Both the position numbers and the translations under genes were made by a program. The notes under the pieces are model-generated. The model was not told where the DNA came from. It was given only the letters and a program-made list of their open reading frames with translations, and did not search any database. This document shows, in pieces, positions 6,115-6,743 of a stretch of 64,000 nt of DNA. Location of the stretch: NCBI RefSeq assembly GCF_054482525.1, contig NZ_CM137006.1. One strand, written 5' to 3'. Every line of letters starts with the position of its first letter. The stretch's first letter is position 1.

Positions 6115-6288
6115 TCACATTATTTTGATTTTGACATCATAACTTTCAAGCCCGGTCATTTTTTCTCGTGCGGTGAAGCGAATTTCAGAGACTTCTTTCC
6201 CTGTGTTCTTGTTCAGCTCGGCGATTTTTTGCGCGATAAAGTCGGCGATTTCCGTTTCGGCTTGTTTTTTTAACTCTTCAATATTCAC
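6115..6288 (-). CDS. gnsA: GnsA, small protein (57 aa) affecting unsaturated fatty acid content
   Basis: Hand translation of the minus strand: (GTG)NIEELKKQAETEIADFIAQKIAELNKNTGKEVSEIRFTAREKMTGLESYDVKIKIM*. Below the 60-aa track cutoff; coordinates hand-counted. Confidence 0.8.
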   Translation of the reverse strand: MNIEELKKQAETEIADFIAQKIAELNKNTGKEVSEIRFTAREKMTGLESYDVKIKIM

Positions 6289-6508
6289 TGTTAACCTCTT
6301 CTGGTCTTAAAAGACAGCAACACGCCAGTAAGGTGTTGGTTCCCGGTACCCTGGTCAGGTAAGAAATGTTATAAGCCATCTCCCCGAAAGATTCAATAAT
6401 CAACAGGTTATCGCTTACTATACATACAGCGTTGAAGAAAAATAAGGCAGATATAAAAAAGGCTCCACGAGGGAGCCTGATATTATTTTGTGAAATCCAG
6501 CGGCGCAT
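6278..6508 (-). CDS. ymcE: YmcE, small protein (76 aa)
   Basis: Track ORF 6278-6541; internal start [76 protein letters not shown] gives 76 aa, matching the YmcE length as I recall it. Its 3' end overlaps the gnsA start by 11 bp. Confidence 0.7.
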   Translation of the reverse strand: MRRWISQNNIRLPRGAFFISALFFFNAVCIVSDNLLIIESFGEMAYNISYLTRVPGTNTLLACCCLLRPEEVNSEY

Positions 6509-6743
6509 GGTCAGTGCGTATTTGCAGCGCGACGTTATCAAAGGTGATCATCGTCGATTTACAAAAAATACACTTTGCCCCTAAAGGATTTCGCTCCGTC
6601 ACATCGAATGCCGATGTGCGGTACTGTGAACCATGACAACATGGACAGCGGAAATGGAGATGTTGAGTAATAACGGCAACCTTAGAGCGTAACAACGTTC
6701 GCTGCCGCGGGACCACGTTGCCCCTGCTCAATAGAAAATTCAA
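6483..6743 (-). CDS. Candidate small zinc-ribbon-like protein (possibly the ymcF small ORF next to cspG); true start uncertain
   Basis: ORF contains RCPCC...CIFC cysteine pairs. Upstream part overlaps the cspG 3' coding region and the downstream end overlaps ymcE, so the translated portion is probably shorter than the 86-aa track ORF. Confidence 0.3.

Follow-up and report, generated by a model that had tools for sequence, protein, structure and literature searches.

Two probable transcription units and one doubtful reading frame among the small genes downstream of cspG in Escherichia coli

The stretch of DNA analyzed here (the window; 64,000 nt of contig NZ_CM137006.1, RefSeq assembly GCF_054482525.1) carries on its minus strand an already known E. 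coli cluster of small genes that follows cspG. The genes gnsA, ymcE, ymcF, and cspG are all annotated in E. coli PCN033, which is 100% identical to the window, and in K-12, and the three small ones belong to the Pfam families PF08178 (gnsA), PF15939 (ymcE) and PF23641 (ymcF). The features of the locus are as follows.

6115–6288, minus strand: gnsA, 57 aa, GTG start at 6288 and stop at 6115
6302–6295, minus strand: gnsA Shine-Dalgarno sequence, AGAAGAGG
6278–6508, minus strand: ymcE (sfa), 76 aa from an ATG within an 87-codon TTG ORF
6368–6396, minus strand: sigma-70 promoter-like element for gnsA, TTGAAT-17 nt-TATAAC
6450–6478, minus strand: intrinsic terminator of cspG-ymcF, AGGCUCC-CUCGU-GGAGCCU followed by UUUUUUAUAUC
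6483–6743, minus strand: third ORF, 86 codons from a TTG, containing FRCPCCHG...KCIFCK
6483–6671, minus strand: ymcF, 62 aa, ATT start, the real gene within the third ORF
6672–6743, minus strand: upstream in-frame extension of ymcF, 72 nt, reaching a TTG inside cspG and lying outside the gene
6666–6687, minus strand: cspG-ymcF junction, CTC-TAA-GGTTGCCGTT-ATT-ACT
6682–6894, minus strand: cspG, cold-shock protein of 70 aa, in the ORF list and the RefSeq annotation
6628–7050, minus strand: cspA-type cold-shock 5′ leader and coding region (Rfam RF01766 'cspA thermoregulator'), spanning the cspG leader and gene

The original prediction described a dense cluster of overlapping genes made up of three minus-strand ORFs, the third with a CPCC...CIFC motif. 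All three are present at the coordinates it gave, gnsA and ymcE were named correctly, and these two do overlap by 11 nt. Its suggestion that the third ORF is ymcF agrees with the RefSeq/K-12 annotation (b4723) and with a PF23641 match, and its suspicion that the real product may use a non-canonical start or be much shorter was borne out on both counts by a 62-aa frame, instead of 86 codons, annotated from an ATT at 6671–6669. The overlaps claimed for the third ORF exist between the ORFs (26 nt with ymcE and 62 nt with cspG), but only the upstream extension reaches into cspG, so the genes themselves do not overlap there. Likewise, the dense overlap is a property of the ORFs, and as a picture of genes it depends on ymcE, the coding status of which is doubtful. 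The most likely reading of the locus, with a probability of roughly 0.8, is that of two transcription units (cspG-ymcF and gnsA) and one doubtful ORF (ymcE). Since annotated genes were rediscovered the finding in itself matters little; what it illustrates is that reading the raw sequence can recover a small non-AUG gene that ORF finders miss.

Strong purifying selection acts on ymcF, cspG, and gnsA, whose pN/pS values among Escherichia species are 0.07, 0.08, and 0.08, respectively. For ymcF, 25 of the 34 variable columns in this comparison fall at codon position 3. The same trend was observed within E. coli, where nine strains vary almost exclusively at position 3 in cspG, gnsA, and ymcF (12 of 13 variable sites for the latter) and have invariant GnsA and CspG proteins. 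For ymcE, pN/pS among Escherichia species is 0.75, the variable columns are spread as 15/13/12 over the three codon positions, and the same nine strains encode six protein variants with variable sites distributed 3/4/2. Judged by these substitution patterns gnsA evolves as a real gene, unlike ymcE.

GnsA matches PF08178 with 122 bits and the crystal structures 4XO1 and 4XO2 ('Protein GnsA') with E = 1e-31. An alignment of 13 gns upstream regions showed that gns genes share the Shine-Dalgarno sequence of gnsA, and that the promoter-like element is conserved upstream of Citrobacter gns and found in a weaker form in the Qin prophage. Both elements are kept upstream of gns genes that have no ymcE. 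Among Escherichia species the promoter-like segment is nearly invariant, with variation at few positions. A consensus scan missed this element because its −10 hexamer ends in C, and we regard 6368–6396 as a putative gnsA promoter purely from its match to the consensus. On the two-unit reading gnsA is a conserved gene separate from cspG-ymcF, with a strong Shine-Dalgarno sequence and a promoter-like element of its own. A hairpin in the gnsA leader (CUGG...CCAG) was discarded, as RNAalifold did not predict it and the seeming compensatory change turned out to be a register shift.

From the 3′ end of ymcF, the ymcE ORF crosses the terminator and a variable spacer, passes through the promoter-like region and leader of gnsA and extends 11 nt into this gene. 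Of about 5,400 E. coli genomes, essentially all carry it as an intact, annotated ORF, and YmcE matches PF15939 'YmcE_antitoxin' and the NCBIfam equivalog NF007379 over its full length (189 and 187 bits). Such matches are to be expected, because both models derive from sequences of E. coli and Shigella. Four of the six other Escherichia lineages have AGG or ATA in place of the start codon, and in four (L004, L005, L006, and L036) frameshifts or stops interrupt the frame. Database matches to YmcE came from Escherichia/Shigella only, varied between 43 and 130 aa in length and were in some cases fused to neighbouring genes; no full-length homolog outside these genera was found in the search. By these data ymcE is an Escherichia-only ORF that evolves like non-coding DNA, and most likely not a functional protein gene. 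Both real-looking overlaps of the cluster arise from ymcE, which covers the terminator as well as the gnsA promoter-like region and leader.

Alternatively, ymcE might encode a bona fide small protein that acts as the antitoxin in a type II pair with GnsA, and the 26-nt and 11-nt overlaps would be real. We consider this unlikely, even though the full-length HMM matches, the family name of PF08178 ('GnsAB_toxin') and the listing of the pair among E. coli toxin–antitoxin systems (PMC8484670) all speak in its favor, as does the persistence of the ORF in almost all E. coli genomes. The arrangement also resembles type II toxin–antitoxin operons, in which a small upstream antitoxin ORF typically overlaps a small downstream toxin gene by a few nucleotides, and the names given to the two families fit. 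Unlike such pairs, however, ymcE is not conserved together with the gns family, shows no purifying selection in the Escherichia comparison and is disrupted in sister species. The absence of any codon-position bias, the six variants in nine strains against invariant GnsA and CspG, the loss of the start codon in four other Escherichia lineages and the restricted set of database matches all argue against a maintained antitoxin, as does the presence of a terminator and a conserved promoter-like element within the ORF. A conserved pairing of ymcE with gns was not observed either, as the gns genes of Citrobacter and the Qin prophage have no ymcE and are preceded by ynfN or by nothing. Databases have passed YmcE on under the name 'antitoxin', and it has featured in modeling and structure-prediction studies; both its status as a gene and the toxin–antitoxin label of YmcE/GnsA merit re-examination.

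The Qin prophage of E. coli K-12 carries a module paralogous to the cspG locus, cspI-ynfQ-ynfR-ynfN-gnsB. Here a csp gene is followed by TGAGG and 8 nt, an ATT-initiated 62-aa YnfQ (66% identical to YmcF), a terminator and GnsB (65% identical to GnsA). Both clusters have an ORF that crosses the terminator, ynfR in Qin and ymcE at the cspG locus. They differ in that Qin has ynfN between the terminator and gnsB and no ymcE, while the cspG locus has no ynfN. The ynfR ORF gives a cold-induced tagged protein (PMC6001520), and translation of this analogous ORF in the cold is a further point in favor of a translated YmcE, although the published protein evidence concerns ynfR only and not ymcE (PMC6001520). 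We also considered the terminator-spanning ORFs ynfR and ymcE as a conserved anti-termination device, an idea that was not adopted because such ORFs are missing at most csp-ymcF loci.

The start of ymcF was compared over 78 Enterobacteriaceae loci. In the window the ATT codon (6671–6669), whose first base is equivalent to K-12 position 1051684, lies 10 nt past the cspG stop, and this TAA stop (6684–6682) sits within a Shine-Dalgarno-like UAAGG that ends up 8 nt ahead of the ATT. Forty loci have ATT as the aligned start codon, three have ATC and 31 have ATG; in the remaining four an ATG lies no more than three codons away. Nearly all of the loci encode a product of 62 aa. Seventeen of 42 ATT/ATC loci have an in-frame upstream stop (at 3–7 codons in 14 loci and 19–21 in three) and then no ATG, GTG, or TTG before the ATT or ATC. 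Eight loci, mostly from Kosakonia, have a 9-nt spacer, which places the csp stop itself in the ymcF frame, three codons upstream. The 72 nt at 6672–6743 form an uninterrupted in-frame run into cspG in the window and are elsewhere not conserved as coding sequence, so by this comparison only 6483–6671 is the gene and the extension is excluded from it. K-12 ymcF (b4723) and PF23641 show the same 62-aa length, the same 10-nt gap after cspG and a full-length HMM match. There is no difference of substance from the K-12 gene, apart from the 72 upstream nt that the original coordinates added.

Initiation of ymcF at the ATT is thus supported by annotation and comparison. These are the two legs on which it stands, because no primary experimental report on YmcF translation or its start was found in the literature searched (VanOrsdel, 2018, PMC6001520; the Weaver, 2019 preprint; Nakahigashi, 2016); the evidence behind the annotation was likewise not found in 'The Cryptic Bacterial Microproteome'. 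It is very improbable that the whole 86-codon ORF (6743–6483) is translated from the TTG in cspG or another upstream TTG or GTG to give a longer YmcF overlapping cspG. The frame is indeed open from 6743, with TTG/GTG codons 24, 45, 60, and 72 nt upstream of the ATT, and 70–72-aa versions have been called in some Citrobacter, Kosakonia and phage database entries. Yet the residues upstream of the ATT are not conserved, the 17 ATT/ATC loci lack any canonical start after their nearest in-frame upstream stop, and the csp stop is in frame in the 9-nt-spacer loci. Stand-alone homologs have their ATG exactly at the aligned position and keep the 62-aa length, and the UAAGG is placed 8 nt ahead of the ATT, both of which also favor the short form.

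The zinc-ribbon ORF is more than a chance open frame, and its substitution pattern among Escherichia species and E. coli strains is that of a coding sequence. Full-length YmcF (residues 1–62 of 62) matches PF23641 YmcF-like with 166.4 bits against a cut-off of 27 and is 97% identical to the E. coli YmcF entries in the databases; the gene is annotated in RefSeq E. coli genomes. The lack of a canonical start codon and the lack of direct protein evidence for YmcF in the literature searched could be taken to mean that the frame is untranslated in E. coli and belongs to the 3′ UTR of the cspG mRNA or to an sRNA derived from the 3′ end, like STnc220 of Salmonella, for which Rfam (RF02077) gives a weak match at 6445–6525 (34 bits, under the gathering score of 60) and a strong one at the same position in Salmonella loci, at the ymcF 3′ end and terminator (102 bits). 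Of the coding sequence, however, STnc220 takes in no more than the final ∼40 nt, together with the terminator, and it is therefore compatible with a coding gene, and an untranslated frame becomes exceedingly improbable in view of the low pN/pS with nearly all variation at third positions among Escherichia species as well as among E. coli strains, the near-invariant protein motif in about 20 genera and the orthologs that start with ATG elsewhere.

The start codon of ymcF is associated with the presence of an adjacent csp gene. Of 39 copies located directly behind an intact csp, 38 start with ATT or ATC, and in these 38 loci the csp stop lies within TAAGG or TGAGG with a spacer of 9–10 nt. Copies without an adjacent intact csp start with ATG in 34 of 39 cases, mostly behind a GGAG-type Shine-Dalgarno sequence. 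The exceptions are five loci with ATT and no intact adjacent csp, and one with ATG beside a csp. The association has a Fisher p of 2e-15, with loci counted without phylogenetic correction, and the number of independent events is far smaller than these counts because related lineages are involved. In Klebsiella oxytoca and Raoultella, where only a decayed remnant of the upstream csp is left, the ymcF homolog starts with ATG. The pattern suggests that ymcF is translationally coupled to csp, and the geometry associated with coupling, a downstream start near the upstream stop with that stop inside the Shine-Dalgarno sequence, is present in the same 38 of 39 csp-linked loci. The division between ATT/ATC and ATG by csp adjacency is a natural pattern pointing to coupling that may be useful to annotators and to researchers working on small proteins.

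A textbook example of a conserved AUU start is infC, which encodes IF3 and in which the AUU serves IF3 autoregulation. As in infC, the AUU of ymcF would be expected to initiate poorly on its own. Unlike in infC, it is tied to a position 9–10 nt behind a highly translated csp and is replaced by AUG in most copies without csp. This position, together with the AUG found elsewhere, points to termination-reinitiation. That YmcF is instead a C-terminal extension of CspG, made by stop-codon read-through or frameshifting with no separate initiation, is scarcely credible: the spacer is very short (9–10 nt), a canonical start is absent and both frames are identical in the 9-nt-spacer loci, but the relative frame varies by lineage (the same with a 9-nt spacer, shifted with 10 nt), many stand-alone homologs have an ATG and a Shine-Dalgarno sequence of their own, and conservation extends to the ATT/ATC codon and the UAAGG/UGAGG motif.

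Several features are consistent with a shared cspG-ymcF transcript. RF01766 matches the minus strand over 6628–7050 with 157.1 bits in cmscan (gathering score 78, E = 2e-42), and it also matches the csp genes that precede ymcF in loci of Salmonella and Citrobacter. The terminator scan placed an intrinsic terminator (6450–6478) 5 nt past the ymcF stop, within the ymcE ORF. Its 7-bp GC-rich stem is part of a −12 kcal/mol structure, the z-score of which (−1.65) is unexceptional for a 61-nt segment, and a hairpin followed by a T-run is seen downstream of ymcF in most csp-linked loci. In a published transcriptome ymcF and ynfQ group with cspG and cspI (PMC11728337).

Under the two-unit reading, cspG and ymcF would form a cold-inducible two-gene message with cspG as the first cistron, the cspA-type leader at its front and the terminator 5 nt past ymcF. 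Ribosomes ending cspG may re-initiate at the weak AUU of ymcF, and YmcF would be made only alongside the cold-shock protein and at a fraction of its amount.

A more far-reaching reading, which we offer tentatively and think doubtful, is that the AUU of ymcF and ynfQ is no accident but a conserved device that makes the zinc-ribbon protein strictly dependent on termination-reinitiation behind csp. If such an AUU device exists, it could keep YmcF at a low, fixed ratio to Csp or make its synthesis respond to the state of the initiation factors in cold-shocked cells, and YmcF might be a dedicated partner of CspA-family proteins. In a related form, terminator read-through in the cold and translation of the terminator-spanning ORFs ymcE and ynfR would couple csp expression to gnsA or gnsB, the membrane-lipid modulator genes located downstream.

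YmcF is, from its sequence, a four-cysteine zinc-ribbon-like small protein of 62 aa that fits two CxxC knuckles. Within a set of 34 sequences C9, C12, and C37 are invariant and C34 is conserved in at least 90%, together with invariant P10, Q16, R18, S20, D23, P29, G31, A32, K33 and other residues. When distant members are included (85 sequences), C12 is still invariant and C9, C34, and C37 are each kept in at least 90%, while C11 is often substituted in the distant homologs. The core motif GSQYR.S.FD and a second ten-residue motif are invariant or nearly so, and still kept among the 85 sequences. An AF2 model based on the 85-sequence alignment has pLDDT >90 for residues 11–40 with short strands; the model from the 34-sequence alignment was unusable (pLDDT 57).

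The top Foldseek neighbors of the YmcF model are the zinc ribbons of TFIIB, ribosomal proteins, NrdR and MqsA, all non-significant with E > 1, and no significant PDB structure match was found by Foldseek. The N-terminal domains of TFIIB, NrdR and MqsA and the ribosomal zinc-ribbon proteins resemble YmcF in having two CxxC knuckles ∼21 residues apart and short β-strands, but they align with E > 1 and TM 0.3–0.45 and do not have its motifs GSQYR.S.FD and the second ten-residue motif. PDB sequence matches to UvrA (CPxCHG) and to Rieske proteins (CPCHGSQY) were at the motif level only, with E ≥ 0.015, and were treated as coincidental. Our best guess is that YmcF may act as a zinc-dependent helper in cold adaptation, associated with nucleic acids or the ribosome.

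A profile search against 1.8 billion representative proteins gave only 42 clusters and no link of YmcF to a wider family, and the only NCBIfam hit was the sub-threshold ECs_2282_CxxC (17 bits vs. 37). In total 137 YmcF homologs were identified, and the matches with a named source are all from Enterobacteriaceae or phage, except for one partial match on a 663-nt contig. The two distant homologs that were examined for csp linkage both stand alone. Most phage records with a YmcF homolog leave it unannotated.

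The window belongs to E. coli; its positions 6000–7450 are 100% identical to E. coli PCN033, and of 5,426 complete genomes of the species 5,422 contain them. The original prediction placed three small minus-strand ORFs here, including a frame with a CPCC...CIFC motif; all three are present in the ORF list at the coordinates predicted, and the coordinates of gnsA and ymcE give the expected overlap of 11 nt. The features of the cluster, read along the minus strand, are:

6682–6894, minus strand: cspG
6483–6743, minus strand: third ORF, 86 codons from a TTG within cspG, FRCPCCHG...KCIFCK (ORF list)
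6483–6671, minus strand: ymcF, 62 aa, annotated ATT start (RefSeq)
6278–6508, minus strand: ymcE, 76 aa from an ATG inside an 87-codon ORF (ORF list)
6478–6450, minus strand: intrinsic terminator, AGGCUCC-CUCGU-GGAGCCU then a U-run, starting 5 nt past the ymcF stop
6396–6368, minus strand: gnsA promoter-like element, TTGAAT-17-TATAAC
6302–6295, minus strand: gnsA Shine-Dalgarno sequence, AGAAGAGG, strong
6115–6288, minus strand: gnsA, 57 aa, GTG start (ORF list)

The third ORF is the already known gene ymcF. RefSeq has a gene for 'cold shock small protein YmcF' whose coordinates correspond to 6483–6671, the counterpart in K-12 MG1655 is ymcF (b4723), and the 62 aa give a full-length match to Pfam PF23641 'YmcF-like' (166 bits, cut-off 27). 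The annotated first codon is ATT (6671–6669), 10 nt past the cspG stop in the junction CTC-TAA-GGTTGCCGTT-ATT. The suggestion that this ORF might be ymcF with a non-canonical start is thus supported, also by the aligned start codons of its relatives. Its proposed overlap with ymcE holds (26 nt); the 62-nt overlap with cspG is an ORF-calling artefact, produced by extension 5′ of the ATT.

For the start-codon comparison, 80 loci were fetched from species-representative genomes encoding a YmcF relative, and the conserved motif was located in 78 sequences, window included. The codon aligned to 6671 is ATT in 40, ATC in 3 and ATG in 31; the other four have an ATG at most 3 codons away, and the protein is 62 aa long in nearly all. 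No ATG, GTG or TTG lies between the nearest 5′ in-frame stop and the ATT/ATC in 17 of the 42 fetched ATT/ATC loci, that stop being 3–7 codons away in 14 of them and 19–21 codons away in the remaining three. Where the spacer is 9 nt, at eight loci mostly from Kosakonia, ymcF shares its frame with the csp stop, three codons 5′. These data exclude from ymcF the 72 nt that lead back to the TTG at 6743. The only canonical in-frame codons within the window gene are GTG24 and ATG41; a start at either would drop the first cysteine pair, yet variation in codons 1–23 is almost confined to third positions.

Selection was assessed within Escherichia by aligning the window with K-12 and six further lineages, E. 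albertii and E. whittamii among them. The proposed codon-substitution check on the zinc-ribbon frame returned a coding pattern, with a pN/pS of 0.07 and variable columns distributed 5/4/25 over codon positions 1/2/3. The corresponding values are 0.08 and 5/3/24 for cspG, 0.08 and 7/1/18 for gnsA, and 0.75 and 15/13/12 for ymcE. cspG, ymcF and gnsA have zero indels in this alignment. A comparison of nine diverse strains of E. coli places the variable sites at position 3 in 5/5 cases for cspG, 12/13 for ymcF and 5/5 for gnsA, one of the latter being a 1-nt deletion in O157:H7; ymcE has nine variable sites (3/4/2 by codon position) and six protein variants. The CspG protein does not differ between the nine strains, nor does GnsA outside the O157:H7 strain, where gnsA is frameshifted. 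In O157:H7 17B6-2, gnsA (locus L084, 316–488) is annotated as a pseudogene frameshifted by a 1-nt deletion, which corresponds to window position 6271, and the ymcE ORF beside it is still intact.

Two modest additions to the known facts emerged. The first is that the ymcF start codon is associated with csp adjacency. ATT or ATC is used in 38 of 39 copies directly behind an intact csp (cold-shock protein gene); it comes 9–10 nt past the csp stop, which lies within a TAAGG or TGAGG that acts as the Shine-Dalgarno sequence. Of the 39 copies that have no intact csp next to them, 34 use ATG, usually preceded by a Shine-Dalgarno sequence of the GGAG type (Fisher's p = 2e-15, a value that ignores shared ancestry, independent events being far fewer than the counts). 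In the Klebsiella oxytoca group and Raoultella (loci L033, L034, L044 and L052, 5′ of position 3001) csp is reduced to a recognisable remnant with stops, and the ymcF behind it starts with ATG; two distant homologues are stand-alone genes. IF3 is known to discriminate against AUU as a start codon, infC being an example. The pattern fits termination-reinitiation, a mechanism we infer, in which ribosomes ending the heavily translated csp would restart at a ymcF codon that by itself would initiate poorly. The paralogous Qin prophage module of K-12 (cspI-ynfQ-ynfR-ynfN-gnsB) has the same TGAGG-N8-ATT arrangement at its junction, and Citrobacter carries csp-ymcF-ynfN-gns versions of the cluster.

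The Rfam cspA thermoregulator model matches 6628–7050 on the minus strand (157 bits), hairpin and T-run terminators lie 3′ of ymcF in most csp-linked loci, and cspG, cspH, cspI, ymcF and ynfQ are all among genes down-regulated together in a transcriptome (PMC11728337). The picture is one of a bicistronic cspG-ymcF message. gnsA probably has its own promoter, the predicted element at 6396–6368; this element and the Shine-Dalgarno sequence are kept 5′ of Citrobacter gns genes, with weaker forms in the Qin prophage. The STnc220 Rfam family corresponds in Salmonella to the 3′-most ∼40 nt of the ymcF coding sequence and the terminator behind it (102 bits; L014 3147–3226 and L024 3147–3225), and scores only 34 bits in E. 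coli (6445–6525, minus strand). It may represent an mRNA 3′ end or 3′-derived fragment, not an independent sRNA gene.

The YmcF family is small and limited to Enterobacteriaceae and their temperate phages, with 137 matches in a word-indexed search and only 42 clusters among 1.8 billion representatives screened with a profile. Nine phage records contain copies, mostly unannotated there. Lambdoid E. coli phages HannyBb, mEp460, 2H10 and Tritos encode homologues of 66–70% identity; the records include PP925841, LR597641, NC_049950 and OV696610, most without a gene annotated at that place. Conserved elements are the outer cysteines of CPxC and CxxC, GSQYR.S.FD and a further ten-residue motif; the extra cysteine C11 is often substituted in distant members. 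This cysteine pattern fits a four-cysteine zinc ribbon. An AF2 model (85 sequences) has pLDDT >90 at residues 11–40 and a disordered tail; its Foldseek neighbours are zinc ribbons of TFIIB, ribosomal proteins, NrdR and MqsA, none significant, and no sequence homologue was found among solved structures. The paralogue YnfQ was modelled as rubredoxin-like in a 2026 review (PMC13348028). From the linkage to csp genes we guess, with low confidence, that YmcF associates with nucleic acids or ribosomes during cold adaptation.

The second addition is the non-coding signature of ymcE, which makes it unlikely to be a functional protein gene. The ORF begins in ymcF, crosses the terminator and a spacer more variable than any other part of the region, and continues over the promoter-like region and the leader of gnsA, which are conserved. 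In other Escherichia lineages the ATG is AGG (three) or ATA (one), the frame is shifted by a 1-nt deletion (two), ∼100 nt are scrambled by 2-nt and 1-nt deletions (another), and a stop codon is present (a fourth). No full-length ymcE was found outside Escherichia by tblastn; elsewhere only the gns-proximal half has weak similarity, to the region upstream of gns in two Citrobacter loci. The conserved part is probably kept for non-coding reasons. A search of 5.8 billion proteins gave 28 YmcE clusters of 43–130 aa, some fused to GnsA, YmcF or CspG domains; the named ones are all Escherichia/Shigella, apart from a partial sequence whose 532-nt contig carries the label Salmonella. The claim that YmcE and GnsA form a toxin-antitoxin pair fails on two counts, co-occurrence of the genes and purifying selection acting on the antitoxin.

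Even with a functionless product, ymcE could be translated in the cold, since its ORF is undamaged in almost every E. coli genome, YmcE is labelled an antitoxin in databases and several papers, and ynfR provides a precedent. This Qin ORF (L003 2189–2254, minus strand) has 21 codons, occupies a position analogous to ymcE, starts 2 nt past the ynfQ stop and is likewise read straight through a terminator hairpin, AAGGCUCC-UUCG-GGAGCUUUUUU. Its tagged product is reportedly strongly induced by cold (PMC6001520), which implies terminator read-through in the cold. In E. coli TW10690 (L085 1855–3323) an IS4 lies between ymcF and gnsA, within the ymcE region, and the truncated ORF left by it is annotated 'cold-shock protein'.

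On the other side of cspG, cspH (7180–7392, plus strand) has a TTG start and is divergent from cspG over a 285-bp intergenic region (6895–7179), with a terminator-like hairpin 5′ of cspH (7102–7124, plus strand). The 3′ end of appA abuts that of cspH at 7380–7401 in a convergent 13-nt overlap (7380–7392); the window strain lacks the ∼9 kb (etk through gfcA, plus IS1D) that lie between them in K-12, and the C-terminus of AppA reads ...ACALHQDK (stop) as against ...ACSL (stop).
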